From the NCBI RefSeq assembly GCF_963921235.1, contig NC_086107.1, positions 112,532,001 through 112,596,000 on the forward strand: a DNA stretch of 64,000 nt. The letters run 5' to 3'. Shown piece by piece: positions 2,005-58,124 of the stretch; position 1 is the first letter of the stretch, and every line of letters starts with the position of its first letter. A program made the translations under genes and the position numbers. The stretch is from Mobula hypostoma. Lineage: Eukaryota. The notes below the pieces were generated by a model. The model saw only the letters and a list, made by a program, of their open reading frames with translations, was not told the origin of the DNA and did not search any database.

Positions 2005-2700
2005 GAAGTCTAGACTAATGATTGACAGATGAGAGTTCCAATCTAGCCATGGGAGCTGAGATATTTAAACTCAGCTAATTAAGTAAATAGGGTTGCAGGG
2101 TGCAGATGCCTCTCTACCAAGGGAGGTGTAAGGTTCTCCTTCCCTCTGTTAGCCTGCAGATCCCCTGCTTAGCCTCCCGCACCCTCCCCCCCCCCACCGA
2201 AGATCAGGGTCACGTGAAACCATGGGAGCAGGTGGTGGATGGTCGTATGAGCAGCTGGTGCATATCACAAGTCCTGGTTACACTACCACTGACGCCAGGC
2301 AGACCATCTCTGAAAAGTATTGATAATGGCTGGGGTCACCCATCTTGTAAAGACACTGCCCAGAAGAAGGCAGTGAATGGCAAGCCACTTCTATCGAAAA
2401 GTTTGTCAAGAACATTCATGGTCAAGGAAAGACGATGATCGCCTACGTCATTCATCACAGCACATAATGAATGAACAAATTAAATAATCTAGCACTTATA
2501 AGAAAGTGAGTAACTGTAACTATGAACCTACTGGATTACTGTGCAATCTACCTGGTTCCTAACATCTTTCAGGGAAGAGATCTGCTGCCTATCCAGACCG
2601 ACCAATATGCTTGATTTGTAACTGGTTAATGAAAGGGTTTAGCAAGACACTGAACTCAGAGGGCTTCTAGAGAGAGACGTTTTATGCCTGACTTCACAAA
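2005..2700 (+). mobile_element. Old degenerate tRNA-derived SINE (DeuSINE/SacSINE1-like) split by a younger insertion of about 390 bp (about 2090-2475)
   Basis: GTCTAGACTAAT...GAGTTCCAATCTAGCCATGGGAGCTG 5' part resumes after about 2478 (ATGAACCTACTGGATT...CTTTCAGGGAAG...AGCAAGACACT). Recognised from memory of the elasmobranch consensus. Confidence 0.45.
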
Positions 2701-3314
2701 CACAGTCCTATCCCATGGACAATCACTGAACAAGTTCTGTGAACTTACCTTCTACAGTGTTAATGCACAACTGATTCACCACATGTGAAGGCCAGGGGCT
2801 GGACTTGGTTGTCAGAGGCTATTTGAGACGCATGCCATTGGGAGCATTTTGATAGATAGTGGGAGCTTCTCCCCAGTTCCACCCCCTGGCTATGACAACC
2901 TTACATTTGTATGTTCTCCCCGTGGCTACATGTGTTTCCTCTAGGGTCTTCAGTTTCTCCTACATTCCAAAAGCGTACAGGTAGTACATTGTGGGCATGC
3001 TATGTCAGTGCTAGAAGCTTGGGCGATACTTGTGGGCTGCCCCCAGCCCATTCTTGGACCGTGTTGGTTGTTAACACAAACATCACATTTCACTCTGAGT
3101 CTTGATGTTTCAGCTTACATGTGACAAACACAGCTAATCTTACTTCTTACTTCCAATACTCTGTTTGATCCATAAGGCTAATTGCGTAATGCAGAGGATT
3201 CTGATTAATTGGGACCAGTATGTATTGGCTCGATTAAGCAGCTGCCCCAATGAGCCGAATGTCAATGGAAATAGTTTTTAAAAGTATGAAAAAGACAAAC
3301 TCCACCGTAAACTG

Positions 3315-3880
3315 GGGTATCGCTTCATTGAGCACCTCCACTCCAGCCACCTCAAGCGGACGGCCAAACATTTTAATTCCCATTCCCATTCCCATTCCCA
3401 GATGTCAGTTCACGGCCTCCTCTTGTGAGGCCACCCTTCAGGGAGCGACACCTTATATTCCGTCTGGGTAGCTCCAACCTGATGGCATGAGTATTGATTT
3501 CTCCTCCCGGTAAACAAATTTCCACCCCCCCCTCTATTCCCGACTCTGACCTTTTACCTCTTGTTACCTGCCTATTGCTTCCCGCTGGGTCCCCTCCTCC
3601 TTCCCTTTCTCCCATGGTCCACTCTCCTCTCCTGTCAGATTCCTTCTTCTCCAGCCCTTGACCATTCCCACCCACCTAGCTTCACCTATTGCCTTCTAGT
3701 CAGCCTCTTTCCCCTCTCCCCACCTTTTTATTCTGGCAATTCCTCCCCTCATTCTCAGTCCTGAAGAAGGGTCTCAGCCCAAAACATCGACTGTTTACTC
3801 ATTTCCATAGATGCTGCCTGACCTGCTGAGTTCCTCCAACGTTTTGTGTGTGTTGCTTTGGATTTCTAGCATCTACAGGC
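3315..3880 (+). mobile_element. Penelope-like element 3' fragment (GIY-YIG C-terminus plus pLTR with degenerate hammerhead)
   Basis: Degenerate HFNS...HLIFRLGSLQPDGM coding remnant, pyrimidine-rich UTR, CTGAAGA..CCCAAAA motif at 3761-3784. Confidence 0.75.
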
Positions 3881-3954
3881 TACTGGTTAACTGAGTAAAA
3901 AAGTATGCATTTAAATTAGAACAGATCAGAACACAACCAATGCCACTGGTAATA

Positions 3955-4330
3955 GTCTGTCTTCTCCGACAATGACAGGAAACCTGTGCGGGAGAGTTTT
4001 AAAAGTGGATAAGAGAGTTCTACTCTCTCGACCTCAGAAGTCTGGGTCCAGTTTGACGTCACAACTGAGGTCTTCCTTGGTTGCAGTGGATGACCATGAT
4101 GTCTTCTGTACCTGGTCGTGCCCTTCGCTCTCCACGGAGCGTTGCACAGCTGCCTTCCTGGCCGTTGGACCTCGTCGTGTCTCTCATCCACCCAGTCTAA
4201 TGGGGATGACTTCACATGCTAGGACAGGTACGTCTCTATCTCACCGGGTATCAGGCCCTCTGGCTCTCCTCACCTGGTTAGCCCCCCTGTTGAAGTGGTG
4301 TACCATAACCATCTGTTGCAAAGATCACTG
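3955..4330 (-). repeat. Unclassified interspersed repeat; second copy on + at about 59835-60090
   Basis: GGAGAGCGAAGGGCA...CATCCACTGCAACCAAGGAAGA...CTTCTGAGGTCGAG shared in inverse orientation between the two loci. Confidence 0.65.
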
Positions 4331-5047
4331 CTTTTTCAACATAAACACATGCTATTTAAAACCTGTTCGCTCTCAGCACAAGTGCACGCGACTGACTCTA
4401 CTTAGCAAGTTTCCTGTCCCAAGTAAGCGGCACAGTGCCCCGTCCAAAGGGACTCCCAGTAACGCCCTCGATTCGTTTTTGCTCTTTAAGGGTTGACCCA
4501 AATAAGCAGCTGCCCTGATTAACCGATGGCCCAATTAACCAGAATCCACTGTATTTAGACGCTGTCCACCTACTCCATCAGATCACTTGCGGAAACAGCT
4601 AATACCTTCCGGCCATCAAAGGATCTGCTCATTTGGGTATGGACTGCCAGTCATTTAGAGTCACTCTGCCTCAAAATTGTCTCTTCTCCACAGAGAATTG
4701 TCATGCAAAAGGTGACCAGGTGAGCACCTGGTCTCCAGAATAACCTTTCACAAGCACCTGTCACACCGGCCGTTTCCGGAACAGTTACTACCCGACCAGC
4801 ATCAGACTCCTGAACCAGTGGGGACAGCTTCAGACTTCGCTCACCTCAGGTGCACTTATTCCACAACCCGTGGACTCTACAATTCAGCATCATTTTTTTA
4901 CTTTTTAAAAGTTATTTGAATGATTTGTCTTCACTTGCACTTTAGTTGTTCATCAGTTTCTTTTAGGTTTTTCTTAACTTCTATTGAGTTTCTTTATTTT
5001 CCTGTAAATGCCTGCAAGAAAATTAATTTCAAGGTGCCATATACGTA

Positions 5048-5587
5048 CAGTACTGTAAAAAAAGTCTTAGGCACATATATATAGCTAGGGTGCATAAGAC
5101 TTTTACACGGTACTATATTGGTCAAGGTGGGGGGAGAGCAAGTTTGTAAACGTCATGGGAGCAAATGATGTTCGGAATGGCAAAGGTGGAGTGCCACAGG
5201 AGGGGTGTGGGACAGGTAGCAGAGAAGCACAGCCAGGGGCAGGTGGCGTGGGGAGGTGCACCCAGCCCTGAGACACCAGGCAAGGTAATTTGATTCCGAA
5301 CAATTGGTTTATTGATCATTACAGAATGTCTCTCTGGTGCTTCCTGCTCCGTCCCCTCTCCCTTCCCCTTTTCCCAACCATGATTCCCCTCTCCCTGCCC
5401 CCTTCCCGCTCCCAGTCCACGATAGAGACCCATATCAGAATCAGGTTTATCATCACTCATCTATGTCATGAAATTTGTTTTTTTTTGTGGCAGCAGTACA
5501 GTGTAATACATAAAATTATTACAGTACTGTGCAAAAGTCTTAGACACCCTAGCTAGATATACGTCCCTAAGACTTTGCACGTTACTG
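5048..5587. mobile_element. Tc1/mariner-type non-autonomous element bounded by two palindromic modules of about 67 bp (5048-5115 and 5522-5587)
   Basis: Each module approximates TA|CAGTACTGTGCAAAAGTCTTAG...CTAAGACTTTTGCACAGTACTG|TA; the module cores are in opposite orientation. Confidence 0.65.
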
Positions 5588-5724
5588 TATTTAGATGGTA
5601 AAGTTACTTCGTACTTTGAACGATGAAAGAGGCCATTTGACCATCTAGCATCCAATTACCTTAATCCTCTCCCTGTCCCATTTGATTCTCCCCATATTCC
5701 CAACAATTCCTCCAACTTCAAAAA

Positions 5725-5935
5725 ACAAGAGAAAATCTGCGGATGCTGGAAATCCAAGCAACACAGACAAAATGCTGGAGGAACTCAGCAGGCCAGGCAG
5801 TATCTATGGGAAAGAGTCAACGGTCAAGGTTTCAGGCTGAGACCCTTTCCAGTCCTGATGAAGGGTCTCAGCCCAAAACCTCGACTGTCCTCTTTTTCAT
5901 AGATGCTGCCAGGCCTCCTGAGTTCCTCCAACTTT
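5725..5935. mobile_element. Palindromic (fold-back) Penelope terminal element
   Basis: Minus-strand pLTR end joined to a plus-strand pLTR end at about 5850. Confidence 0.75.
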
Positions 5936-6289
5936 TCAACTTTCATGTCTTTGATATGGGGGAGGAAACTGAAGCACTCGGGAGAAACTCGCGCCTTGAC
6001 AAGGAGAACGTGCAGACTCCACACAGAGAGCAATAGTCGCTGGATCCATGAGGCTGAAGCTTTAGTAGCTGTTGTGCGGTGCCACTCAAGCATGCGACAA
6101 CAGATTGAAGGAAGGCAGTGGATTCTGCTCTTGCCATGTCCAAATAGGTGACACCCCAACAGAAGTAATCTGATGGGCATCCACAGGAACCCTAGGACAT
6201 AGTGGCATTGAAGGAAGTGGGTTTGAACTGCATCCTTCGTACTTCTACAATATAGCCCACTGCTTCCAAATTTCTGCCCCAATCACCTC

Positions 6290-6580
6290 AACAAGAACAT
6301 GAGATAATGAGATAAAGAGTCCTTAAAGTAAGATCATTGGATGTGGGAACATCTCAGTGTATGGGCAAGTGAGTGTAGTTATCCCCTTTTTTTCGAGAGC
6401 CTGATGGTTGAGGGGTGGTAACTGTTCTTGATCATGGTGGTGCGAGTCCTGAGGCTCCTGTACCTTCTACCTGATGGCAGCAGCGAGAAGAGAGCATGGC
6501 CTGGGTGGTGAGGGTCCCTGATGATGGATGCTGCTTTACTACAACAGCGTTTCATACAGATGTGCTCCATGGTTCGGAGG
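6290..6580 (-). mobile_element. Rex1/Babar LINE 3' fragment
   Basis: AASIIRDPHHPGHALFSLLPSGRRYRSLRTRTT, the Rex1 ORF C-terminus. Confidence 0.8.
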
Positions 6581-6589
6581 GATTTATTT

Positions 6590-7950
6590 GTCTATTGAGA
6601 TACAGCCCGGAAAAGACCCTTTGGTCCTTCGAACCGCACCACCCAGCAACCTGTCGATTTAATCCTAGCCCAATCACGCGACAATTTACCAATTAACCTA
6701 CCAACCGGTATGTCTTATGGTCATACTTTATTATCCCGAGTATGACTATAAGACATACCAGTTGGTAGGTTAATTGATAAATTGTCGCGTGATTGGGCTA
6801 GGATTAAATCGGCAGATTGCTGGGTGGTGTCTTTGGACTGTGGGAGGAAATGGGAGCCTACAGCCTCAGGGTGTATCTGAGTGGTAGAGTCTGCTGTAGT
6901 TAATAGGAATTTTATTTTATTTCTTTTAGTTACAGCAAGAAATAGGCCCTTCCAGCCCGTCAACCTGCACCGCCCAGCAAACCCCAACAACAGTGATTTA
7001 ACCCTAACCCTGTCACGGGACAATTTACAAATGACCAATTCTCTCACCCAATACGCCTCAGGATTGTGGGAGGCGACCGGAGCACATGGACGAACCCACA
7101 CGTTCCATGGGGTGTGCGTACAGATGACATCTGAATTGAACGCCGAACTCCGACACCTCGAGCTATAATAGTACTGCGCTAACCGCAGCACCCACGGAAT
7201 GCTGGGAGAATAACTGAGGTGGCACAGTAGCGCAGTGGTTAGCACGACGCTCCACAGTACCGCTGATCCAGGTTCAATTCCCGCTGCTGCCTATAAGGAG
7301 TCTATACGTTCTCACCGTGACCGCGTGGGTTTCCTCCGGGTGCTCTGGTTTCCTCCCACAACCCAAAGGCGTACTGGTTGGTGGGTTATTGGTCATTGTA
7401 AATAGTCCTGTGATTAGGCTAGGATTAAATCAGGGATTGCTGGGAGGTGTGGCTCAAAGGCTCAGAAGGGCTTATTCCTGGCTGTATTAGTTAATTAAAT
7501 AGGACCTAAACAGGTCTCTCATGGTCAGTGTGAAACCAGTGGACTGAGGGGCCTCGAACTTTGCTGGCTGCTCCATGATTTAAGAGTTCTGATTGAACAC
7601 GTTGCCCGTGAGGTTGTTAGTCGGTGAGGAGTCTGCACGCCCTCCCTGTGCCCACATCAGCTACCTCCACGGGCAGGTTGGTGGGTTAACTAGGCACTGT
7701 AGTTGTCCCTGGGATGCAGGTGAGTGGTAGAATAAGGTGGGGAGGGAATTGCTGAGACCTCGCAGAGGTCGGCAAGATCATACGGCACAGTAACTGGGTG
7801 CGCTGGCTTCCTCCCACAGTCCAAAGACGTGCCGGGCATTGTAAATTGTCCCGTGATCACATTAGGGTTAAACCGAGGTTGTCAGGGGTTGCTGGATGGC
7901 GCGGCTGGAAAGGACAGGCTGTTCCACGCGGTAACTCAATAAATAAATAA
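6590..7950. mobile_element. Cluster of V-SINE (HE1-like) copies and fragments in mixed orientation; best copy 7218-7500 (+)
   Basis: The 7218 copy has A box TAGCGCAGTGG (7228), B box GGTTCAATTCC (7271) and V-core GCGTGGGTTTCCTCCGGGTGCTCTGGTTTCCTCCCAC. Minus copies at about 6590-6715 and 6920-7190. Confidence 0.75.
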
Positions 7951-8186
7951 ATTCATTTGGAGGTCAGGATTGAACTGGATCAGCTTATGACCCTCGTACT
8001 CCGTGAGGCTATCATGTGAACGGATCTAGGACCGTTGCGCGGGCTAACTGCTACACCTGGACTACACACTGCAAGCAGAGCGGTGCAGCGCGGAGAGCCA
8101 ATACAGCTTATCCCACGCTGTTTCTCTCAGTAAGGACTGACACAGGGTGGGGAAAAGGTCTAAGACATGATGGCATAAGTTGTCCA

Positions 8187-9005
8187 ATGCATAACGACAA
8201 GAGTGGTCTGGACGGGAAACAGCTTCTTCCCTCAGGCCATTAGGCTTCTGATCTTTCTGCCGCATCGCATTAAAGTATCACTGGTTAATCTGTTCTGTAC
8301 CTTACAATATTTATGCACTTTAATTTAGGCAACACGCTCAAAATGCCGGAGGAACTCAGCAGGCCAGGCAACATCTATGGAAAAGAGTAAACAGTCGACA
8401 TTTTGGGCCGAGACCCTTCATCAGGACTCTCATCGCCCTTCATCAGGGTCTCGACCCGAAACGGCGACTGTTCACTCTTTTCCACAGATGCTGCCTGGCC
8501 TGCTGAGTTCCTCCAGCATTTTGTGTGTGTGTTGCTTTGGATTTCCAGCATCTGCAGATTTCCTCTTGTTTGTGATATACACTTTAGTTTACTTATGTGT
8601 AATCCATCCGTAGATTTCATCCTTACTTTCATAAGTTATTATGTGTTATGTGTGTTCTGTGTACACCCTGCTTTACACACTGGTTCGGAGAAACATTGTC
8701 TCATTTGACAGATACGTGTATATAGTTAAATGACAATAAACTTGACTTGACTTGATGTCCACAATGTTCATCAGAGCTACAGAAAAAACAACATGTTGTC
8801 CTCTCTTGCCTATGAAAATACTCCTCTGTCTTTGCCCTGAACCCAACTGAACTGAACTGAACTATACTGAAATGTGCCTTTTGTGCTTTATATTCTGTTT
8901 TAAATCATTTTCTGCTGTCATTTGCATAATTTTTTTGCGTATGATTGGGAAGAGGGGTTTGAAGTTTTTCTTTGGGCAGGTTAGTTCCATGGTTTTCCTT
9001 GTTTC
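8187..9005 (+). repeat. Copy 1 of a composite duplicated block (Rex1 3' end + fold-back Penelope + spacer + retroposon tail); resumes at 11771-11803 after a CR1 insertion
   Basis: Colinear with 16902-17744, with the same nested junctions and the spacer TGTCCACAATGTTCATC.GAGCTACAGAAA. Confidence 0.9.
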
Positions 9006-11770
9006 CATAAGACCATAAGACCATAAGGCAAAGGAGCAGAAGTCAGCCATTCGGCCCATCGAGTCTACTCTGCCATTTTATCATGAGCTGATCCATTCTC
9101 CCATTTAGTCCCACTCCCCTGCCTTCTCACCATAATCTTTGATGCCCTGGCTACTCAGATACCTATCAATCTCTGCCTTAAATACACCCAATGACTTGGC
9201 CTCCACTGCTGCCCGTGGCAACAAATTCCATAGATTCACCACCCTCTGACTAAAAAAATGTCTTCACATTTCCGTTCTGAATGGGCGCCCTTCAATCCTT
9301 AAGTCATGCCCTCTCGTACTAGACTCCCCCATCATGGGAAACGGCTTTACCACATCCACTCTGTCCATGCCTTTCAACATTCAAGATGTTTCCATGAGGT
9401 CTCCGCTCATTCTTCTAAACTCCAAGGAATACAGTCCAAGAGCGGACAAACGTTCCTCATATGTTAACCCTCTCATTCCCGGAATCATTCTAGTGAATCT
9501 TCTCTGTACCCTCTCCAACATCAGTACATCCTTTCTTAAATAAGGAGACCAAAACTGCCCACAGTACTCCAAGTGAGGTCTCACCAGCGCCTTATAGAGC
9601 CTCAACATCACATCCCTGCTCCTATACTCTATTCCTCTAGAAACGAATGCCAACATTGCATTCGCCTTCTTCACTACTGACTCAACCTGGAGGTTAACTT
9701 TAAGGGTATCTGTACGAGGACTCCCAAGTCCCGTTGCATCTCAGAACTTTGAATAATAGTCTGCCCGTTTATTTTTTCTGCCAAAGTGCATAACCATACA
9801 CTTTCCAACATTATACTTCATTTGCCACTTCTCTGCCCATTCTTCCAATCTATCCAGGTCTCTCTGCAGACTCTCCGTTTCCTCAGCACGACCGGCCCCT
9901 CCACCTATCTTCGTATCGTCAGCAAATTTAGCCACAAAGCCATCTATTCCATAATCTAAATCGTTGATGTACAATGTAAAAAGAAGCGGCCCCAACACGG
10001 ACCCCTATGGAACACCACTGGTAACCGGCAGCCCATCAAAATAGGATCCCTTTATTCCCACTCTCTGTTTCCTGCCAATCAGCCAACGCTCTATCCACAT
10101 ATGTAACTTTCCCGTAATTCCCTGGGCTCTTATCTTGTTAAGCAGCCTCATGTGTGGCACCTTGTCAAAGGCCTTCTGAAAATCCAAATATACAACATCC
10201 ACTGCATCTCCCTTGTCTAGCCTACTGGTAATTTCCTCAAAAAATTGTAATAGGTTTGTCAGGCAGGATTTTCCTTTAAGGAATCCATGCTGAGTTCTGC
10301 CTATCTTGTCACATGCCTCCAGGTACTCTGTAACCTCATCCTTGACAATCAACTCCAACAACTTCCCAACCACCGATGTCAAGCTAACAGGTCTATAATT
10401 TCCCTTTTGCTTCCTTGCCCCCTTCTTAAATAGCGGAGTGACATTTGCAATCTTCCAGTCCTCCAGAACCATGCCAGAATCTATCAACTTTTGAAAGATC
10501 ATCGCTAATGCCTCCGCAATCTCCACAGCTACTTCCTTCAGAATATGAGGTTGCATTCCATCTGGTCCGGGAGATTTATCTACCTTTAGACTATTCAGCT
10601 TTCTGAGTACTTTCTCTGTCGTAATTGTGACTGCGCACACTTCTCTTTCCTGCCACCCTTGAGTGTCCGGTATACTGCTGATGTCTTCCTCAGTGAAGAC
10701 TGATGCAAAATACTCGTTCAGTTCCTCTGCCATCTCCTTATCTCCCATTACAATTTCTCCAGCATCATTTTCTATTGGTCCTATATCTACTCTCACCTGT
10801 CTTTTACTCTTTATATACTTGAAAAAGCTTTTAGTATCCTCTTTGATATTATTTGTTAGCTTCCTTTCATAGTTAATCTTTTCCCTCTTAATGACCTTCT
10901 TGGTTTCCTTTTGTAAGGTTTTAAAAACTTCCCAATCCTCTGTCTTCCCACTAATTCTTGCTTCCTTGTATGCCCTCTCCTTTGCTTTAACTTTGTCTTT
11001 GACTTCTCTTGTCAACCACGGTTGCATCCTTTTTCCACTCGAAAATTTCTTCTTTTTTGGAATATACCTGTGTTGCACCTTCCTCATTTCTCACATAAAC
11101 TCCAGCCACTGCTGCTCTGCTGTCTTTCCTGCCAGTGTCCCTTTCCAGTCAACTTTGGCCAGTTCCTCTCTCATGCCACTGTAATTTCCTTTACTCCCCT
11201 GAAATACCGACACATCAGATTTCGGCTTCTCTTTTTCAAATTTCACAGTGAACTCAATCATGTTATGATCACTGCCTCCTAAGGGTTCCTTCACCTCAAT
11301 CTCTCTAATCATCTCCGGTTCATTACACAATACCCAGTCCAGTACAGCCGATCCCCTAGTGGGCTCAACAACAAGCTGTTCTAAAAAGCCATCTCGCAGA
11401 CATTCTACAAATTCTCTCTCTTGAGATCCAGTGCCGACCTGATTTTCCCAATCCACTCGCATATTAAAATCCCCCACAATTATCATAACACTGCCCTTCT
11501 GACAAGTTTTAATTTGTAGTCCACATCCCTGCAGCTGTTTGGAGGCCTATAAATAACTGCCATCAGGGTCCTTTTACTCCTGCTATTTCTTAGCTCAACC
11601 CATAAAGATTCTGCACCTTCCGATCCTATATCACCTCTCTCTAATGATTTAATATCATTTTTTACCAATAAAGCCACGCCTCCCCCTCTGCCTACCTTCC
11701 TATCCTTCCAATACACTGTGTATCCTTGGACGTTCAGCTCCCAGAGACATGCATCCTTTAGCCAGGTTTC
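9006..11770 (-). mobile_element. CR1-clade LINE, 5'-truncated, about 2.77 kb; ORF2 (partial APE endonuclease + RT) broken by a few stops, frameshifts and small deletions
   Basis: ORFs 11716-11483, 11486-11091 (GDFN, GSDHN), 11087-10005 (SPGPDG, NYRPVSLTS, YLDFQKAFDKVPH), 9998-9741 (KFADDTK) and 9674-9381; (CATAAGAC)n tail at 9006; GTTTC on both flanks. Confidence 0.95.
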
Positions 11771-12919: not shown

Positions 12920-13853
12920 CTGCCCGGTTTATTTCGATGATCTCCTCTTGGGCTAGAGGGCAGGAGTCACCTTGGGCACTCCTCTGTGGGGACTTGATGT
13001 CAGGCTTACAATAGTTGGGAGAGCCCGGCTGGGGTGCCCGGGGAATGTGCTTGTTCTTCTTTTTTGGTAACTTTTGCTTGGCCATAGCCAAGGAATAGTA
13101 CATGCCAAAGTTATTGACTATGACGGGGACCGGCATAGCAATGGTCAGCACCCCGGCCAAGGCGCAGAGAGCTCCCACCAACATCCCGGACCAGGTTTCC
13201 GGATACATGTCCCCGTAACCCAGGGTTGTCATGGTTACCACAGCCCACCAGAAGCCGATGGGAATGTTCTTGAAGCTGGTGTGCTTGCTGCCCGTGATGT
13301 CTTCGGGGTCGGCCCCTATCCTCTCGGCGTAGTAGATCATGGTGGCGAAGATCAGGACCCCGAGGGCCAGGAAGATGATCAGCAGGAGGAACTCGTTTGT
13401 GCTGGCCCTCAGCGTGTGGCCCAGGACACGCAGCCCGATGAAGTGGCGGGTGAGCTTGAAGATACGCAGGATCCGGACAAAGCGCACCACGCGCAGGAAA
13501 CCCAAGACGTCCTTGGCAGCCTTGGAAGAGAGTCCACTCAGGCCGACCTCCAGGTAAAAGGGGAGGATGGCCACAAAGTCAATGATGTTCAGCGTGTTCT
13601 TGATGAACTCCTTCTTGTCGGGGCAGAACAGGATGCGCATCAGGAACTCAAAGGTGAACCAGACGACGCACATGCCCTCCACGTAGGTGAGGAATGCCTC
13701 CGTCTCAATCTCCACGTCCTCCACCACGCTGGTGACGTTGCCCCTGACGATCGTCTCCGTCCTGTTCACTTGGTGGTTGAAAGCTTCATGGGTCTCAAGG
13801 CAAAAGGTGGTGATGGATATCAAGATGAAGAAGAGAGATGCAAACGCCACGTA
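12920..13853 (-). CDS. KCNC3: Internal coding exon (exon 2 equivalent) of a voltage-gated potassium channel of the Kv3/Shaw subfamily, most likely Kv3.3; encodes S1-S6, pore and proximal C-terminus (311 codons + 1 nt)
   Basis: Translation runs YVAFASLFF to EEIIEINRA. It contains S4 [19 protein letters not shown], filter TTLGYGD, S6 PVPVIV, basic motif [11 protein letters not shown] and two S1-S2 N-glycosylation sequons (NRT, NVT). Acceptor TTTCTTCCCTGCAG|TAC at 13854/13853; donor GCAG|GTAAGT at 12920/12919. The Kv3 family call is near-certain. [32 protein letters not shown] and [11 protein letters not shown] match my recollection of Kv3.3 better than Kv3.1, so the paralog call is less certain. 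Confidence 0.85.
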
Positions 13854-15184: not shown

Positions 15185-15561
15185 CATGGATTACCTCAGC
15201 TGGTCCCTCAAAATCGCCTCCCTGAGCAAGAAGGCACAACAGCACCTCCACTTCCTGAGGAGACTGAGGCATGCGAGGCTCCCCTCCCCCCAACCTTAAC
15301 TGCATTGAGAGCATCCGAACAAGTTGCATCTCCATCTGCCATGGGAGCAGCCAAGCACTGGACCGGAAATCCCTACAAAGGACTGCGAGAATGGCTGAGA
15401 GGATCACAGGGGTCTCCCTAACGTACATCAGGAGCGCTGTGAGCACAGGGCCCTTAGTATTGTCAAGGATCCCAGCCATCCATCCAGCATCCTCTTTGAC
15501 TTTCTACCATCAGGCAGGAGACTCCGATGCACAAAGACAAGAACGGTCAGGATGGGAAACA
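15185..15561 (+). mobile_element. Rex1/Babar LINE 3' fragment; continues at 16902-17450 after a Penelope insertion
   Basis: CIESIRTSCISICHG...DRKSLQRTARMAERITG remnant; (CTTGA)n tail at about 17436-17450. Confidence 0.8.
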
Positions 15562-15618
15562 CACATCAAAGTTGCTGGTGAACGCAGCAGGCCAGGCAGC
15601 ACCTGTAGGAAGAGGTAC

Positions 15619-15654
15619 AGTCGACGTTTCGGGCCGAGACCCTTCGTCAGGACT
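15619..15654 (-). ncRNA. Minimal type I hammerhead ribozyme motif (Penelope pLTR), sense to the KCNC pre-mRNA
   Basis: Minus strand reads AGTC-CTGACGA-A-GGG-TCTCGG-CCC-GAAA-CG-TC-GACT: stem I AGTC/GACT, core CUGANGA and GAAA, palindromic ACGT stem III, GUC cleavage triplet. Confidence 0.75.
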
Positions 15655-16772
15655 AACTGAAAGAAGAGACAGTAAGAGATTTGAAGGTGGGAGGGGGAGG
15701 GGGAGATCCAAAATGATAGGAGAAGACAGGAGGGGGAGGAATGGAGCCAAGAGCTGGACAGGTGATTGGCAAAAGGGATATGAGAGGATCATGGGACAGG
15801 AGGCCCAAGGAGAAGGAAAAGGGGGAGGGGGAAAAACCCAGAGGATGGGCAAGTGGTATAGTGAGAGGGACAGAGGGAGAAAAAGGAGAGAGAGAGAAAG
15901 AATGTGTGTATATAAATAAATAACAGATGAGGTACGAGGGGGAGGTGGGGCATTAGTGGAAGTTAGAGAAGTCAATGTTCATGCCATCAGGTTGGAGGCT
16001 ACCCAGACGGAATATAAGGTGTTGTTCCTCCAACCTGAGTGTGGCTTCATCTTTACAGTAGAGGAGGCCATGGATAGTCATGTCAGAATGGGAATGGGAT
16101 GTGGAATTAAAATGTGTGGCCACTGGGAGATCCTGCTTTCTCTGGCGGACAGAGCGTAGGTGTTCAGCAAAACGATCTCCCAGTCTGTGTCGGGTGACCC
16201 TATCTCTTGCTCTCACAGCTGTCTGGACTATTCCTCTTCTCACCCTGTCTCTTGCAAAAATGCCATCCCCTTCTCGCAATTCCTCCGTCTCCGCCGCATT
16301 TGCTCTCAGGATGAGGCTTTTCATTCCAGGACGAGGGAGATGTCCTCTTTTTTTAAAGAAAGGGGCTCCCTGCCGCATCGCATTCAAAGTCACACTCAGG
16401 TTGGAGGAACAACACCTTATGTTCCGTCTGGATAGCCTCCAACCTGATGGCATGAACATTGACTTCTCTAACTTCTGCTGATGTCCCACCTCCTTCTCGT
16501 ACCCCATCCGTTATTTATTTATATACACACATTCTTTCTCTCACTCTCCTTTTTGTCCCTCTGACTATACCCCTCGCCCATCCTCCGGGTTTTCCCCCCC
16601 TCCCCCTTTTCCTTCTCCCTGGGTCTCCTGTCCCATGATCCTCTCATATCCATTTTGCCAATCACCTGTCCAGCTCTTGGCTCCATCCCTCCCCCTCCTG
16701 TCTTCTCCTATCATTTTGGATCTCCCCCTCCCCCTCCCACTTTCAAATCTCTTACTCACTCTTCCTTCAGTT

Positions 16773-16808
16773 AGTCCTGACGAAGGGTCTCGGCCTGAAA
16801 CGTCGACT
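16773..16808 (+). ncRNA. Minimal hammerhead ribozyme motif (Penelope pLTR)
   Basis: AGTC CTGACGA AGGGTCTCGGCCT GAAA CGTC GACT. Confidence 0.7.
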
Positions 16809-16901
16809 GTACCTCTTCCTAGAGATGCTGCCTGGCCTGCTACGTTCACCAGCAACTTTGATGTGTGTTGCTTGAATTTCCAGCATCTGCAGAATTCCTC
16901 G

Positions 16902-17744
16902 AGGATGGGAAACAGTTTCTTCCCTCAGGCCATTAGATTTATGAACTCCCTGCTGCATCGCATTCAAAGTATCACTGGTTAATCTGTTCTGTACCCAACA
17001 ATATTTATGCTCTTTAGTTTAGGTAACACACTCGAATGCCAGAGGAACTCAGCAGGTCAGGCAACATCTATGGAAAAGTGTAAACAGTCGACATTTTGGG
17101 CCGAAACCCTTCATCAGGACTCTCATCGCCCTTCATCAGGGTCTCGGCCCGAAACATCGACTGTTTACTCTTTTCCACAGACGCTGCCTGGCCTGCTGAG
17201 TTCCTCCAGCATTTTGTGTGTGTGTTGCTTTGGATTTCCAGCATCTGCAGATTTCCTCTTGTTTGTGATATACACTTTAGTTTACTTATGTGTAATCCAC
17301 CTGTAGATTTCATCCTTACTTTCATAAGTTATAATGTGTTGTGTGTGTTCTGTGTACTACTGTGCTTTACACCCTGGTTCAGAGAAATATTGTCTCGTTT
17401 GACAGAATACTTGTATACAGTTAAATGACAATAAACTTGACTTGACTTGATGTCCACAATGTTCATCGGAGCTACAGAAAGCACAACATGATGTCCTCTC
17501 TTGCCTAGAAAGATACTCCTCCGTATTTGCTCTGAACCAAACTAAACTGAACTAAACTATACTGTACTGAAATGTGCTTTTTGTGCTTTATATTCTGTTT
17601 TTAATCATTTTTTGTTGGCGTTTGCACAATATTTTTGCGATCGGTTGGGAAGCGGGGTTTGATGTTTGATGTTTTTCTTTGAGCAGGTTGGTTGCATGGT
17701 CTTCTGCGTTTTATGGCTGTCTGTGGGAAGACAAACCTCAGGGT
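16902..17744 (+). repeat. Copy 2 of the composite duplicated block
   Basis: Colinear with 8210-9005 plus 11771-11803. Confidence 0.9.
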
Positions 17745-24965: not shown

Positions 24966-25810
24966 TCTAATCGTCAGTATATGAATGTTGTATTAAAGAT
25001 GTGTGCAAAAACTGCAGATGCTCAAAATCTGAAATAAAGATAGAAAATGCCGGAACACTCAGCTGGTCAGGTAGCCTCTGGAGGGAGAGAAACAAAAGGT
25101 TAACAACTCTGCTTGCTGCCCTTTCGTCAAATCTCAAGCAGTTTGCTATCTGAGGAAGTCGTCGTTGCTTTCGTTGTTACTGAGGAAACTTGAGAATCCA
25201 AAATATTATTATGTTTTCTTCTTCAGCACAGGTTTACTTGTGTCAGTAGCTGCAGTATCGAATATTGAAAAGCTTAAATAGAGTGGACATGGAGAGGATG
25301 TTTCCAACAGTGGGAGAGTCTAGGACTAGAGTGCACAGCCTCAGAATATGAGGATAGCTGCTTAATTGGTCCAAATGTACTAGTCCCAATGTGTCCCAAT
25401 TATCCAGAATCCACTGTACATCCAATATGCCCTGTCCTGAAAAATATCTATGACTAGGAGCTTCGCCAATGGTCTGGGCATCAAACTCCAGCTGTTGCTC
25501 ATACAGGCCTAGGTTCAGGTGACCTGGCCCCTAAGTTACCAGGAACACATGGATCCTATTACATCGCTTCCTGGAGAGAGAGGTTGAGTAAGCTCGGACT
25601 TCATTCAAAGTTCGAAAGTTCAAAGTGCATTTTATCGAAGTATGTATACATTATACAATCTTGAAATTCATCTCCTTACAGGCAGCCATGGAACAAAGAA
25701 ACCCTAAAGAACCCAGTAAAAGCAAAGGAAAACCGTCAAACACCTGGCGGGCAGAGAGAGAGGAAAAACAATCGTGCAAAACAATAAAAGGAAGCAAACA
25801 GCGTTCGGAA

Positions 25811-25924
25811 ACAACAGGAATTCTGCAGATGCTGGAAATTCAAGCAACACACATAAAAGTTGCTGGTGAACGCAGCAGGCCAGGCAGCATCTCTAGGAAG
25901 AGGTGCTGCCTGGCCTGCTGTGTT
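25811..25924. mobile_element. 114-bp Penelope terminal insertion with a short fold-back hairpin
   Basis: 15-bp TSD AAACAGCGTTCGGAA (25796-25810, 25925-25939); internal AACGCAGCAGGCCAGGCAGCA...TGCTGCCTGGCCTGCTGTGTT. Confidence 0.85.
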
Positions 25925-26171
25925 AAACAGCGTTCGGAACTGAAGTTCGCAGAACCAGATATCGCTCCAGCCGATCTAGATGTCCACTAGTTGCAGGCCA
26001 CAGCTGCAGACAAGCATAGAGTCGAGCAAACTCCAGAGAGCAGCGAGCTGAACCAGCCCGTCTCTGACACCCCGGCCATTTCAATCTGGCCCGGCGCTTA
26101 AATCATCCAAACCTCAGGTCGCTCCTCACTCTCGGACTTGGGCTCAGCCACTTCGATATGGCCAGTACCCA

Positions 26172-31769: not shown

Positions 31770-32398
31770 CATCTCCCTGAACAAGAAGGCACAGCAGTGC
31801 CTCCACTCCCTGAGGAGATTGAGGTAAGCAAGGCTCCACCCCTCTCCCCCAATTCTTAACTGAATCTTACAGGGCCACCATTGAGAGTATCCTGAGAAGC
31901 TGCTTCTCCATCTGGTATGGGAGCAGCCGAGCATCGGACTGGAAGTCCCTACAAAGGACTGTGAGAACAGCCTAGGGGTCTCCCTACCATCCACTGGGGA
32001 CTTTTAACAGGAGCCCTTAGTATTATCAAGGCTCCCACCCATCCACCCAGCATCCTCTTTGACTTTCTACCATCAGGCAGGAGACTCTGATGCATAAAGA
32101 CAAGAACGGTCAGGATAGGAAACAGTTTCTTCCCTCAGGCTATTAGGCTTCTGAACTCCCTGCCGCATTGCATTCGAAATATCACCAATTAATCTGTTCT
32201 GTACCTATTTAATTTATGCACTTTAGTTTGTTTATTTATGTATAATTCACCTGCAGATTTTATCCTTACTTTCATTAAGTTATTCTGTGATCTGTGTACT
32301 ACTGTGTTTTACACCCTGGTCCGGAGAAACGTTGTCTCATTTGACGGTATACATGGATACGGTTAAATGACAATAAACTTGGCCTTGACTTGACTTGA
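31770..32398 (+). mobile_element. Rex1/Babar 3' fragment inserted in an old CR1 RT remnant (FDFRKAFDK at about 31730-31760)
   Basis: Same subfamily as 15185-17450; GACAATAAA...(CTTGA)n tail. Confidence 0.75.
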
Positions 32399-33300: not shown

Positions 33301-33883
33301 CACACAGGCAATCAGCAAAGACATTTGTTGACTGGAGTAAGAGGTATAGATAGAGAGTACAGCCAGATAGACTTTATCCCAGGGAAGAACTAGCTAATGC
33401 AAGAGGCCATAATTTTGGTGGAAGGTTACTGAGGTAGTTTTTTTTTACACACAGAGTGGTAGATGTGTGGAACACCCTGCCAGGAGTTTTAGTAGAGCCA
33501 GATACTTTGGGGAGATTTAAGAGACTCTTAGGCACATGGCTGACAGGAAAATGGAGGGTTATGGGGGAAGATTGAGCTTAGAGTAAGTTAAAAGGTCAGC
33601 ACAAAAATCGTGGGCCGAATACCCTTTACTCTGCTGTACTGTTCTCTACGTTCTGAGGCATCGAAGATACAAATCAGAATCAAAACCAGGTTTAGTATCA
33701 CTGACATGTGTCATGAAATTTATTGCTGTGCATGTAGTGCAATAGATAACAAATATATTATAAATACAGTAGGAAAATGCATAAAAATAAATAAGTCATG
33801 CAAAAAGAGTGAGGTAGTTTTCAAGGGTTCAGTCATTGTCCATCCAGAAATCTAATGGTGGAGGGGAAGGAGCTGTTCATAAA

Positions 33884-34568
33884 ATGTGTGTGTGTAAGTG
33901 TGTGTGTGTGTGTGTGAGTGTGTGTGTGTGCGTGCGAGTGTGTGTACACGTGTGTGTGTGAGTGTGTGTGTGCATGTGTGTGTGTGTGTGTGCGTGTGTG
34001 CGTGTGTGTGTATGAGTATGTGTATGTGCGCACGAGTGTGTGTATGCGTGTGTGTGAGTGTGTGTGTGTGAGTATGTGTGTGTGTGCGTGCGTGTGTGTG
34101 TGAGTGTGTGTGTGCGTGCGTGTGTGTGTGCAAGTGTGTGTGTGCTGCGTGTGTGCGTGCATGTGTGTGCGTGAGTGTGTGTGTGTGAGTGTGTGTGTAA
34201 GTGTGTGCGCGCGTGTGTGTACACGTGTGTGTGTGTGCGTGCGTGTGTGTGTGCGCGTGTGTGTGCGCGTGTGTGTGTGCGCGTGTGTGTGTAAGTGTGA
34301 GTGTGTGTATGAGTATGTGTGTGCGCGCGAGTGTGTGTACATGTGTGTGTGAGTGTGTGTGTGTGTGTGCGAGTGTGTGTGTAAGTGTGAGTGTGTGTAT
34401 GAGTATGTGTGTGTGCGCGCGAGTGTGTGTACACGTGTGTGTGTACGCGTGTGTGTGTGAGTGTGTGTGTGTGGATGTGTGTGTGTGAATGCGTGCGTGT
34501 GCGTGTGTGAGTGTGTGTGTGGATGTGTGTGTGTGCGTGCGTGTGTGTGTGTGTGTGGATGTGTGTGC

Positions 34569-34618
<50 letters not shown>
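33884..34618. repeat. Compound (TG)n microsatellite of about 735 bp with CG/AG/TA interruptions
   Basis: Seen directly; explains the THTH and CVCV ORFs. Confidence 0.97.
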
Positions 34619-34621
<3 letters not shown>

Positions 34622-35449
34622 TTTCTGTGTCTTCAAGCTGACGGTAGTAACGAGGAGACAGCACGTTTGCCAAATTTGCTGATGCCACTAAGAAAGGCAG
34701 GAAAGTAAGCTGTGAAGGAGACTACGAAGGGACACAGGTAGTTAAGTGGGTGGGCAAAGATCCAGCAACGTGTGAAATAATGATATTTTACATCTTCACA
34801 GGGGGAAGAAATGTAAAAAGCATATTATCTGTGGCGATGGGCTGCGACGCTCTGCGACGCAGAGGGATCTGGGTGATTTAATCCACAATTCACAGAAGGC
34901 TAGCATGCAGATCGAGCATATAATGAGGAAACATAACAAAATGTATAGTTAAATGCCAGGGGAACTGAATATAAAAATAGGCAGGTTATGCTTCAGTAAC
35001 ACGTAGCACTGGCGATGCATGTTCAGTACTGGGTCTCCTTATTTAAGGAATTATTAGCTGCACTGGAAGCGGATCAGAGAAGGTTTACATCGAAATGTAG
35101 GTAACAGGAACAAGAGGAGACCAGTCACGACTTGAATGTACTCCAACATTCAATACAATCATGGCTGATCCAGTCTTGGCCCCAGTATCACCTTTCAGCT
35201 CTACGCCAGAAACCTCAATTCCCTTGTGGGTTAAATGCCTGTTAACCTCCAAGTTGATTATATTCATCAGCTCTGCCTTCGCCGTTCTAGTTTGAGATTT
35301 CCAAAAATGCACAATTTTCTGAGAGATGTTCTCTCCTCACTTACATCTGAAAAGGGTCACATTTTAATCTGAAACTTTGCTCCCTATTTCTAGATAACAC
35401 CATTAAGGATACAGTACATATTCTCGGGATCCACCCTCAGAATCCTATA

Positions 35450-37099: not shown

Positions 37100-37825
37100 A
37101 TATTACATATATATTAATGACTTGGATGAGGGAATTAAATGCAGCATCTCCAAGTTTGCGGATGACACGAAGCTGGGTGGCAGTGTTAGCAGTGAGGAGG
37201 ATGCTAAGAGGATGCAGGGTGACTTGGATAGGTTGGGTGAGTGGGAAAACTCATGGCAGTTGCAATTTAATGTGGATAAATGTGAAGTTATCCACTTTGG
37301 TGGCAAAAATAGGAAAACAGATTATTATCTGAATGGTGGCTGATTAGGAAAAGGGGAGGTACAACGAGACCTGGGTGTCATTATACACCAGTCATTGAAA
37401 GTGGGCATGCAGGTACAACAGGCGGTGAAAAAGGCGAATGGTATGCTGGCATTTATAGCGAGAGGATTCGAGTACAGGCGCAGGGAGGTACTACTGCAGT
37501 TGTACAATGCCTTGGTGAGACCACACCTGGAGTATTGTGTGCAGTTTTGGTCCCCTAATCTGAGGAAAGACATCCTTGCCATAGAGGGAGTACAAAGAAG
37601 GTTCACCAGATTGATTCCTGGGATGGCAGGACTTTCATATGAAGAAAGACTGGATGAACTGGGCTTGTACTCGTTGGAATTTAGAAGATTGAGGGGGGAT
37701 CTGATTGAAATGTATAAGATCCTAAAAGGATTGGACAGGCTAGATGCAGGAAGATTGTTCCCGATGTTGGGGAAGTCCAGAACGAGGGGCCACAGTTTGA
37801 GGATAAAGGGGAAGCCTTTTAGGAC
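37100..37825 (+). mobile_element. CR1 ORF2 RT C-terminal fragment, little diverged
   Basis: ISKFADDTKLGG...WQLQFNVDKCEVIHFG; LYNALVRPHLEYCVQFWSP...RGDLIEMYKILKG. Confidence 0.9.
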
Positions 37826-37995
37826 CCCCCCCCAAAAGCACTATGCTTGGGTCCCATGACCTCCAGACCCCTTTGAGTAGCCACATTTTGTAGTACAACT
37901 CTGTGTGAATAATTATTCTTCCTTCCAAAGTGAATAACCTCACAAGCAGTTAACAATCTGCCGGAGGAACTCAGTGGGTCAGGCAGCATCAGAGT

Positions 37996-38577
37996 AAGGG
38001 TGTCCGCCAGAGAAGGCAGGATCTCCCAGTGGCCACACATTTTAATTCCACGTCCCATTCCCATTCTGATGTGTCTATCCACGGCCTCCTCTACTGTAAA
38101 GATGAAGCCACACTCAGGTTGGAGTCCGTCTGGATAGCCTCCAACCTGATGGCATGAACATTGACTTCTCAAACTTCCGCTAATGCCCCACCTCCCCACC
38201 GTACCCCATCTGTTATTTATTTATATACACACATTCTTTTTCTCTCTCTCCTTTTTCTCCCTCTGTCCCTCTCACTATACCACTTGCCCATCCTCTGGGT
38301 TTTTCCCCCCCTTCCCCTTTTCCTTCTCCCTGGGCCTCCTGTCCCATGACCCTCTCGTATCCCTTTTGCCAATCACCTGTCCAGCTCTTGGCTCCATCCC
38401 TCCCCCTCCTGTCTTCTATCATTTCGGATCTCCCTCTCCCCCTCCCACTTTCAAATCTCTTACTAGCTCTTCTTTCAGTTAGTCCTGACGAAGGGTCTCG
38501 GCCCGAAACGTCGACTCTACCTCTTCCTAGAGATGCTGCCTGGCCTGCTGCATTCACCAGCAACTTTGATGTGTGTT
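37996..38577 (+). mobile_element. Young Penelope 3' fragment
   Basis: 10-bp TSD GCATCAGAGT (37986-37995, 38578-38587); closely similar to the arms of 15562-16901. Confidence 0.85.
38481..38516 (+). ncRNA. Minimal hammerhead ribozyme motif (Penelope pLTR)
   Basis: AGTC CTGACGA AGGGTCTCGGCCC GAAA CGTC GACT, fully consensus. Confidence 0.72.
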
Positions 38578-38726
38578 GCATCAGAGTGAGCAAATGAAGA
38601 GATGACGTTCCGGGTCTAGGCAAGCTCATGTCTGCTCATCTTCCAACTTCCTGCGCACTTGTCCAACCAGTCTCTGTGTTCCCCTCACAACTCGTCAGCA
38701 CCCCCCCCCAGTTATATATCAGCAAA

Positions 38727-39215: not shown

Positions 39216-39347
39216 CTGCCTGTAGAACACTCATCTAAATCCTCACTACAGATTTAATAGACTAATACCTGGAATCGGTTGATTGCTCTATGAGTTGGAC
39301 CAGGCCTCTCAATATTAACTCCAGTTATACCAACTAAATTGAAACAT

Positions 39348-39653
39348 ACAGGATCATGAGGAATGTGGCTTCTGGTTTAAGATGGCACTACAGAAGGTGA
39401 GCAACAGCTCACTGGTAGCTCAAAGGGCAAGAAATCTGACTAAAAACGTAATTAATAACACCACTTCTGAGGTAAATTGTGGTAAACTATCACCACAAAC
39501 ACAGGATCATGAGGAATGTGGCTTCTGGTTTAAGATGGCACTACAGAAGGTGAGCAACAGCTCACTGGTAGCTCAAAGGGCAAGAAATCTGACTAAAAAT
39601 GTAATTAATAACACCACTTCTGAGGTAAATTGTGGTAAACTATCACCACAAAC
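39348..39653 (+). repeat. Tandem duplication, 2 x 153 bp
   Basis: Copies start at 39348 and 39501; the only difference I see is C/T in CTAAAAAC versus CTAAAAAT. Confidence 0.95.
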
Positions 39654-41980: not shown

Positions 41981-42164
41981 ACTCCCAGATCCCTCTGCAA
42001 ACCCTCATCATCGACACAATATGCTTTTTTAATTTTAATTTTATTTCTCCTGCCTCGCGATGGGATTTGAGCGTCACCTTGTGAGCTTAGCAGTGCGGCA
42101 GTTATTTACTGAGCTAACACCCTGCAGCCTCAGCCAGAGGAGATTCCCAGCGCGTTTGGAACGT

Positions 42165-42377
42165 AACACACACAAAATGCTGGAGGAACTCAGCAGGTCA
42201 GGCAGCGTCCTTGGAGGGAAATAAGCAGTCGACATTTCAGCCCGAGACCCTTCATCGGGACTTATCATGAGGACTGGTGCTGATGAAAAGTCTCGATCCA
42301 GAACGTCGACTGTTTATTCCACTCCATCAACACTGCCTGACCTGACAAGATCCACCAACATTTTGTGTGTGTTGCTT
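42165..42377. mobile_element. Fold-back Penelope terminal element
   Basis: AACACACACAAAATGCTGGAGG...CCAACATTTTGTGTGTGTT inverted arms with two degenerate hammerhead motifs. Confidence 0.75.
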
Positions 42378-43785: not shown

Positions 43786-43883
43786 GAAAACTGATCGCCC
43801 GATCCTTATTGCTGTTTTTGGGAACGTATAGTTTCAGATTCAGATTTAGTTTTCTGTATCACATGTCTGTCAAAACATACAGC

Positions 43884-55411: not shown

Positions 55412-55508
55412 ATTATACGTCTGCGTAGCCTCCAACCTGATGGCATGAACATTGACTTCTCTTACTTCTGTTATTGCCCCACCTCCCCTTCGTACCCCAT
55501 CCCTTATT

Positions 55509-55558
<50 letters not shown>

Positions 55559-55897
55559 TCTCTCTCCTCTCTCTGTCCCTCTCACTATAACTCCTTGCCC
55601 ATCCTCTGGGCTCCCCTCCCCCTTTTGTTCTCCATAGGTCTCCCGTCCCATGATCCTCTCCCTTCTCCTATCCCTTTTGCCAATCACCTGTCCAGCTCTT
55701 AGCTCCATCCCTCCCCCTCCTGTCTTCTCCTATCATTTCAGATCTCCCCCTCCCCCTCCCACTTTCAAATCTCTTACTATCTCTTCTTTCAGTTAGTCCT
55801 GACGAAGGGTCTCGGCCTGAAACGTCGACTGTACCTCTTCCTAGAGATGCTGCCTGGCCTGCTGCGTTCACCAGCATCTGCCGATTTCCTCCTGTTT
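55412..55897 (+). mobile_element. Young Penelope 3' fragment with (CT)n expansion
   Basis: RLRSLQPDGMNIDFS; (CT)n at about 55513-55565; imperfect ACGATATT flanking duplication. Confidence 0.85.
55795..55830 (+). ncRNA. Minimal hammerhead ribozyme motif (Penelope pLTR)
   Basis: AGTC CTGACGA AGGGTCTCGGCCT GAAA CGTC GACT. Confidence 0.7.
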
Positions 55898-57714: not shown

Positions 57715-57990
57715 CGGCCACAGTAGCATAGTGGTTAGCACAACACTAGCTCAGGGCGTCGCAGTTCAGAGTTCATTTCCAGCATCCTCCGAAAGGAAGT
57801 TTGTACGTTCCTTGCAATGCGCACGTGGGTTCCCACTGGATACTCCGGTTTCCTCCCACAGTCCAGAGACCTACCAGCTAGTTGGTTAATTAGTCATTGT
57901 AAACTGCCCCCAAGAATAGGCTAGGGTTAAATTGGTGCGTCACAGAGGGCTGAAGGGGGCTGCCCCACACTGTATCTCAATAAATAAATC
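57715..57990 (+). mobile_element. V-SINE (HE1-like)
   Basis: GGCCACAGTAGCATAGTGGTTAGC head, CTCCGGTTTCCTCCCACAGTCC core, AATAAATAAAT tail. Confidence 0.75.
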
Positions 57991-58124
57991 TGTAAATAGA
58001 TCAGCCACAGAAAATCGTGCCCAGCGTAGTCTGGTGGCAGAATGGTTGGGAATGTCAGGAGAATGGGTTAGAAGGAATATAAATGGGGGAATGGGATTAT
58101 TCCAAGAACTGACACAGGCTCAGT

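Follow-up and report, generated by a model that had tools for sequence, protein, structure and literature searches.

The Penelope-like retroelements (PLE) of metazoans carry minimal hammerhead ribozymes (min-HHR) in their pLTR. Those described by Cervera and De la Pena (2014, PMC4209133) have a type I layout with a short helix I, an extra base between positions 9 and 10.1, a G10.1-C11.1 pair and a palindromic 15.2-16.2 strand with no loop 3. Most are single dispersed copies, and close opposite-strand pairs also occur. The published min-HHR are very slow; in Schistosoma, where helix II is 7–8 bp, the monomer did not cleave and cleavage of the dimer was low (PMC4209133). The EN+ PLE are 5'-truncated on insertion and have inverted pLTR with a target-site duplication and an optional tail at one end (PMC3846280). 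Those of the Neptune clade encode a reverse transcriptase (RT), a cysteine linker and, at the C terminus, a GIY-YIG endonuclease (Craig et al. 2021, PMC8557442). In the Poseidon element PAc of Anolis, the hammerhead is upstream of two tail-defining RT starts and the main template is uncut RNA (Frangieh et al. 2024, PMC11167929). The anole motif does not cleave without protein, no RNA-seq ends were reported at its site, and the ribozyme is dispensable for insertion in vitro (PMC11167929).

Ribozymes are also found in the introns of host genes. The CPEB3 HDV-like ribozyme (PMC10919898) and the amniote intronic hammerheads (PMC6765202) are on the sense strand of neuronal-gene introns, upstream of an exon. 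Such intronic ribozymes are described as conserved, that of CPEB3 over 100 million years, and the CPEB3 ribozyme has a half-life of 2–3 min (PMC10919898). Splicing is not disturbed by intronic ribozymes that cleave slowly (Fong 2009, via PMC10919898). The non-LTR retrozymes of vertebrates, including one chondrichthyan genome, have PLE-derived type I hammerheads arranged head-to-tail, one strand bearing two or more of them (10.64898/2026.07.22.740005).

The motif described here is at 15619..15654 (-) of a 64,000 nucleotide stretch of the Mobula hypostoma genome (NC_086107.1, positions 112,532,001 to 112,596,000), referred to throughout as the window. It has the layout, short helix I, extra base, G10.1-C11.1 pair, palindromic strand and pLTR location of the metazoan PLE min-HHR, and its family likewise consists mostly of single dispersed copies with close opposite-strand pairs. 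It differs in having a helix II of 4 bp, and the commonest variant of the family has U at 11.1. The element that carries it has the domains and linker of the Neptune clade and the truncation, inverted pLTR, target-site duplication and one-ended tail of EN+ PLE, however a contiguous tandem master was not recovered at 10 loci. Its hammerhead is upstream of two ends resembling the RT starts of PAc, and its main template is apparently also uncut RNA, although the two belong to different PLE clades. As with the CPEB3 and amniote ribozymes, the motif is on the sense strand of a neuronal-gene intron, upstream of an exon, yet it is a young repeat copy, would depend on dimer formation, is predicted to be masked and is known from sequence alone. 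It is not a retrozyme, since its two motifs are arranged head-to-head, one to a strand, whereas a retrozyme has its intact motifs, two or more, in head-to-tail tandem on the same strand. Our literature search, which mostly covered journals outside subscription, returned no paper on PLE hammerheads in cartilaginous fish, and one of the two supplement files of PMC4209133 contains no shark or skate terms.

The hammerhead motif and its copies in the window

Intact copies of the motif are present at 15619-15654 (-), 16773-16808 (+), 38481-38516 (+) and 55795-55830 (+), at the positions given in the initial annotation. The motif sequences at 15619 and 38481 are identical and those at 16773 and 55795 have a single C-to-T change at position 11.1. 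The annotation counted these as four intact copies and all four exist, but those at 15619 and 16773 are the two arms of one insertion and are not independent. The six decayed copies that it named were recovered, each within a few bases of its place, and there are at least five more in the window. Scanned with a generic minimal-hammerhead descriptor, the window yields 4 sites, while 30 Markov-resampled windows average 0.1, with a maximum of 1.

On the minus strand, stem I of the motif pairs 15654-15651 with 15622-15619, giving 4 bp plus a U-G. It is followed by the CUGANGA box (15650-15644), the extra A (15643), stem II (15642-15639 with 15634-15631), GAAA (15630-15627), the self-complementary 4 nt strand of stem III (15627-15624) and C17 (15623). 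From hammerhead numbering, the scissile bond is predicted between 15623 and 15622. The core boxes first recognized hold, however stem II, as first drawn, is better read as 4 bp (three G-C, one U-G) with a 4 nt loop. In sequence, descriptor and features the motif corresponds to the minimal type I hammerheads listed in PMC4209133. The core boxes CUGANGA, GAAA and UH are present, helix I, which has 4–5 bp in hammerheads of this kind, closes the 5' and 3' ends, helix II is present, and the palindromic 15.2-16.2 strand does not form a stable helix III. The extra nucleotide between 9 and 10.1 occurs with G10.1-C11.1 at 15619 and 38481, while the motifs at 16773 and 55795 have U at 11.1 in place of C. 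The motif is in the pLTR on the sense strand of its element, approximately 300 nt after the stop codon of the open reading frame (ORF) on the same strand. The proposed identity, a PLE-type minimal type I hammerhead in a pLTR, is borne out by the published descriptor and the element context. No Rfam hammerhead family was matched, either across the whole window at E<=5 or across a 161 bp stretch at E<=10, and the identification is accordingly made with the published minimal-hammerhead descriptor.

The U-11.1 variant has two possible pairings, a G-U with the extra base and, after a shift of register, a 3 bp stem II closed by A-U that has no extra base. It is not a decayed form; it is both the majority and the youngest form in the genome, with 32,886 exact copies against 4,891 of the C variant. 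A pyrimidine tract ending in AG abuts the 5' start of stem I at 15653-15680 (-). The same arrangement is seen in most copies and in both the young family and the older related one.

The Penelope-like insertion

The stretch 15562-16901 is one inverted insertion of a 5'-truncated PLE with a 13 bp target-site duplication. The sense arm, 15562..16195 (-), matches the 3' end of the element's long-ORF copy in locus L028 at 92%. Within it are the C-terminal portion of the GIY-YIG endonuclease, with its stop near 15953, the pyrimidine-rich pLTR and the hammerhead; the arm ends approximately 65 nt past the cleavage site without a tail. At the junction of the arms, 16210..16374 (+) encodes a C-terminal fragment of the RT of the element, which we take to be the thumb region (94.6% to L028 5864-6029). 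The inverted arm, 16387..16899 (+), has the end of the ORF, the pLTR and the hammerhead at 16773-16808 with U at 11.1. It ends approximately 95 nt past the cleavage site, with a tail. The two arms form a 491 bp inverted repeat of 92% identity by BLAST. The copies of the target-site duplication are at 15549..15561 (+) and 16902..16914 (+), and the insertion splits an older repeat into a left half, 15408..15561 (+), and a right half, 16902-17020, of which an uninterrupted copy exists at 31974-32229. Because the duplication flanks the whole unit and the older repeat is split by it, both arms arrived in one event. The insertion is young: over 203 bp its identity to dispersed copies is 97%.

The other two intact motifs are in separate 5'-truncated copies, 38001..38579 (+), which has a 10 bp duplication at its flanks, and 55418..55879 (+). 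An older related family is represented by a palindromic relic at 17026..17223, with decayed motifs at 17086 (-) and 17127 (+), and by similar relics at 3757, 5851, 8393/8434, 18321, 24193, 42227/42276 and 42588. The palindromic relics of this family span 5723-5936, 8322-8570, 17026-17263 and 42163-42377. The regions 8210-8606 and 16903-17299 share 93% identity over 398 bp including flank, as a local duplication or a composite element. A 120 bp inverted mini-insertion at 25810-25931, flanked by a 15 bp duplication, is made solely of sequence downstream of the cleavage site (starting at +4 and +18), and a similar tail-only piece is at the start of the window, 1-91.

Counted from the cleavage site, the 3' ends of the copies group around +65 and +101, a two-ended 'tail' signature. 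Ends at these places are expected from two reverse-transcription starts of the kind described for PAc (PMC11167929). In the genome there are copies with long open frames; frames of 728 and 790 aa have RT and C-terminal GIY-YIG matches in that order in Pfam (RVT_1, E 2e-5; GIY-YIG, E 0.002-0.009), both below the curated cut-offs. The ORF fragments of the window itself have no Pfam match but are 89–95% matched to the long-ORF copies. Both long frames have a C-x4-C-x2-C linker between RT and endonuclease. A CX2-5CxxC linker marks Neptune and Nematis (PMC8557442), and only Neptune and Poseidon were found among vertebrate PLE in a preprint (10.64898/2026.07.22.740005). Together with the inverted or direct pLTR, the tail at one end and the target-site duplication, this identifies what appears to be a Neptune-type EN+ PLE, the clade being set by linker and host. 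None of the 10 long-ORF loci has a contiguous pLTR-ORF-pLTR (partial-tandem) master copy. L028 was considered as a full pLTR-ORF-pLTR element and rejected, since it consists of two insertions.

Close opposite-strand pairs, that is, inverted insertions, are common in the genome listings, and all 6 inverted pairs examined have duplications of 12–16 bp. The two arms of a pair can carry different subfamily alleles: of the 29 differences between the arms of the window pair, 8 fall at sites where each allele is present in 5 or more of the other copies. In three other pairs that align well enough for this comparison, such sites account for 8 of 50 (L028 3265-4489), 4 of 16 (L035 1975-4623) and 6 of 18 differences (L019 1068-3045); L016 and L022 were left out because they included unrelated flank. 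We suggest tentatively that the arms of single inverted insertions may be copied from two RNAs, primed from both nicked strands, although this is somewhat less probable than the alternatives taken together. It fits the observation that a dimeric protein extends both strands in vitro (PMC11167929). The alternatives are gene conversion, nested insertion, unlike source pLTR and misalignment in the pyrimidine tract. In the same literature search, most subscription journals being outside it, no paper on PLE mechanism was found by title for twin priming.

The remainder of the window contains other repeats. Hairpins at 19144, 28818, 35926, 43480, 6694 and 39049 have sub-threshold matches to microRNA families on both strands and are probably miniature inverted-repeat elements. 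Fragments of other non-LTR retroelements, with RT-like frames, are at 10005-11546 (-), 830-1489, 37344-37859, 45340-45717, 43795-44469 and 57920-58612, two of them with zf-RVT and ALKBH8_N matches. There is also a tandem repeat at 47963-48581 with a unit of approximately 43 codons; another at 39343-39735 has two copies, and 33833-34721 is a long tract rich in CA.

Abundance, decay and activity of the family

In the 3.48 Gb genome the C variant has 4,891 exact copies and the T variant 32,886, a total of 37,777. Within 3 mismatches there are 121,096 copies of the motif, with none for a reversed-pattern control, and an ORF piece of the element has 165,873 first-look candidates. The 37,777 exact intact copies exceed the approximately 4,000 motifs reported from the coelacanth and 9,000 from Xenopus (PMC4209133), although the methods of counting differ. 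One exact intact copy is present per 92 kb, so that 0.41 sense copies are expected in a 76 kb intron and the chance of one or more is 0.34; for the C variant alone, the chance of a sense copy in intron 1 of Kv3 is 0.05. Under a uniform model, a 64 kb stretch with four exact copies has P = 0.006, although a single event accounts for two of the four. Given the 37,777 exact copies and the 0.41 expected, the sense copy in Kv3 is unremarkable, and the notion of a motif special to this gene is not supported. Nor is it single-copy, as would be expected of a host-domesticated ribozyme of the CPEB3 type, having 4,891 exact copies and 97% flanking identity to dispersed copies.

Decay was assessed in 23 older copies of the 67 found at <=8 mismatches in 279 kb. 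Differences occupy 13 of 207 cells at the non-CpG core positions, compared with 29 of 368 in the stems and loop (P = 0.51). Of the 23 copies, 8 have a changed G12, and the other CpG sites are changed in 7–10 of 23. The change of GAAA to AAAA is therefore CpG decay, and selection to switch off the ribozyme was rejected as its cause because the rate equals that of the other CpG sites. In intron 1 of Kv3, 1 of 9 sense motif copies is intact compared with 3 of 6 antisense; preferential inactivation of sense copies has no support from this (P = 0.24), the comparison being of low power.

With reverse transcription initiated 65 or 101 nt past the cleavage site, a template already cut there would yield a very short insert that starts at the site. 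Copies whose homology begins at the site number 448; at the two control positions, +4 and -4, the counts are 223 and 319, the patterns not being normalized to each other. The site thus has 1.4 to 2 times as many junctions as the controls, without a sharp peak. By-eye inspection of the first 100 site-starting copies listed found one of two upstream trinucleotides in 31 (approximately 7 expected), and these trinucleotides repeat or mirror the 5' half of the motif itself. The 5' ends of the element were therefore rejected as a mark of cleavage in vivo, microhomology to the 5' half of the motif being the simpler cause, and a small fraction of cleaved RNA could also explain the excess. Site-starting copies amount to <1% of the 121,096 that read through the site, allowing for a pattern capture rate of approximately 0.42. 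This suggests that the main template is uncut (or re-ligated) RNA, as in the anole element.

That more than 99% of copies read through an uncut site raises the alternative that the motif no longer cleaves anywhere in the family and either persists as a signal for protein binding or folding close to the RT starts or hitch-hikes. The majority variant has lost G10.1-C11.1, insertion of the anole element in vitro does not require its ribozyme (PMC11167929), and the Naiad elements thrive without a ribozyme (PMC8557442). However, the young and older families differ mostly at N7, loop II and CpG sites and have the core boxes in common. The majority variant can still form the A-U closed stem II without an extra base, and the anole motif does cleave with protein and is rescued in C3/G8 experiments (PMC11167929). 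Loss of cleavage across the family is a credible minority reading, which we consider unlikely.

The motif in the Kv3 pre-mRNA

Exon 2 of a Kv3 (KCNC) gene, which encodes S1-S6 and the pore, is at 12920..13853 (-). The best solved relative of its product is Kv3.1 (E 3e-178); the paralogue is presumably KCNC3. Exon 1, encoding the T1 domain in 600 coding nt, is 26 kb beyond the window, with the start codon at window-relative 90616 and the donor after 90017. Intron 1 is therefore approximately 76.2 kb and contains all of 13854-64000. The motif is on the sense strand of the Kv3 pre-mRNA, as claimed, and the 1.8 kb first given as its distance upstream of the pore exon is confirmed as 1.77 kb, measured from the predicted scissile bond to the exon 2 acceptor at 13853. 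The inverted arm, 38001..38579 and 55418..55879 are all antisense in this transcript, the inverted arm being transcribed ahead of the sense arm. A match of 90 bits to Rfam K_chan_RES, the potassium channel RNA editing signal, at 13110-13223 (-), within exon 2, is probably coding similarity to Kv channel S6. The exon 1 frame (L011 5954-6706 (-)) has an N-terminal peptide matching the Shal-type family of Pfam (E 9e-10), which we assume to be an inactivation peptide.

The motif is very probably an ordinary PLE passenger in intron 1 of Kv3, masked in the transcript, with the intron spliced normally. A 5'-truncated Neptune-type PLE was inserted recently, head-to-head, into an older repeat in the intron. 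The motif would be able to cut only as a double hammerhead, formed by two copies through their self-complementary stem III strands and swapped stems I. Many PLE hammerheads reportedly cleave as dimers, as the title of a 2016 paper by Lunse has it. Cutting would probably be helped by the protein of the element and take place in the element's own tandem RNA. In the Kv3 transcript the polymerase would read the antisense arm first, and the emerging sense arm would form a duplex of approximately 490 bp that buries the motif. If unmasked, the monomer would be expected to prefer a rod, and the transcript would offer it no intact partner. Intron 1 would then be spliced normally and the motif would decay at the neutral, CpG-driven rate of its older neighbours.

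Masking by the complementary arm had been offered as an alternative to cleavage, and it is the part of that proposal which the predicted fold of the whole insertion upholds: 35 of the 36 motif nucleotides are paired with the arm containing 16773-16808, at a mean pairing probability of 0.97. Masking is favoured by the order of transcription, in which the antisense arm comes first. The RNA duplex of the two arms is predicted at -925 kcal/mol. Alone, the motif is predicted to fold as a rod that pairs the catalytic box with the cleavage triplet. The probability of stems I and II is 0.02–0.15 across five local contexts that leave out the antisense arm. A double-hammerhead fold has -16.7 kcal/mol, against -25.8 for two rod monomers; these nearest-neighbour energies ignore tertiary core contacts and co-transcriptional kinetics.

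Sequence from exon 2, or part of it, is present in 20 of the 22 sequencing runs listed, which consist of assembled contigs and whose type is guessed. Run X1, from the same species and only guessed to be RNA, has all of the sampled words of exon 2. One of its contigs, of 1,860 nt, covers the 5' part of exon 2 and departs from the genome at 13854, with 730 other letters upstream. This fits exon 1 spliced to exon 2, since the length matches 600 coding nt plus UTR. The break at the acceptor is as a spliced mRNA would have it, and a partial loss of transcripts is still compatible with it. A contig of run X2, from another organism, has the same break. The intron adjoining exon 2 has no contig cover in the runs compared.

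A duplex of 490 bp with the predicted stability given above, 1.7 kb from the acceptor, could act on Kv3 without catalysis, through editing or slower splicing, or the AG 5' of the motif could act as a decoy acceptor. The pyrimidine tract preceding this AG in the young and older families would suit such a role, and in Drosophila an intron of Penelope ends at helix I (PMC4209133). Against this, a splice junction tested with one candidate donor in the ORF has 0 matches among genomic copies, and a joint of the arm to exon 2 is absent among 15 of 36 joints. The AG would be buried in the duplex and inverted insertions are common in the genome. We regard an effect of this type as improbable.

It was originally suggested that the motif could cleave the nascent transcript. 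This is not supported, there being no intact partner on the same strand and its published relatives being inactive as monomers or active only with the protein of the element. No second intact sense copy was found by an ungapped scan of 124 kb, which spans the whole of intron 1 and a further 43 kb past exon 2; only 1 of 13 minus-strand copies is intact. Four more keep the core boxes, without the palindrome and with damaged stems, and the generic descriptor has 1 minus-strand site in the 124 kb. On these models, cleavage of the Kv3 pre-mRNA by the motif is unlikely. A version in which family transcripts pair with the sense copy in trans, perhaps chaperoned by PLE protein, and so tune or lower Kv3 output in the manner of the CPEB3 intronic ribozyme could draw on the intact core positions, G10.1-C11.1 pair and palindrome and on the long open frames with RT and endonuclease in the genome. 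Sequence of the family is in all 4 runs compared (2,685 to 11,153 contigs each), where it is not assignable to a locus, and fast intronic hammerheads reduce mRNA in a fish (PMC11856399). In the Kv3 transcript, however, the partner in cis is absent and the earlier-made antisense arm pairs with 35 of 36 nt. At mammalian rates transcription from the cleavage site to exon 2 takes approximately 0.4–0.5 min (PMC10919898), against the very slow cleavage of published min-HHR (PMC4209133). The insertion, at 97% identity over 203 bp, is young and therefore gives no sign of long retention. Cutting of this kind is very improbable.

Equally remote is a latent network in which expression of a Neptune protein would let family RNAs pair with intronic copies as double hammerheads and cut host pre-mRNAs, including Kv3, its premise being the approximately 38,000 exact intact copies with half of the intronic ones in sense. 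If such a network existed, it would be a transposon-controlled route to the cutting of many host pre-mRNAs; cutting would have to precede closure by the antisense arm, and the inverted arm would let sense insertions be tolerated.

As an ordinary passenger, the motif matters little for Kv3, being one more copy of a transposon motif that has already been described. Although no sharp footprint of cleavage was found here, the size of the family allows the action of PLE hammerheads in vivo to be tested from the genome only. It also serves for the study of selection against sense intronic copies and of how inverted PLE insertions arise.
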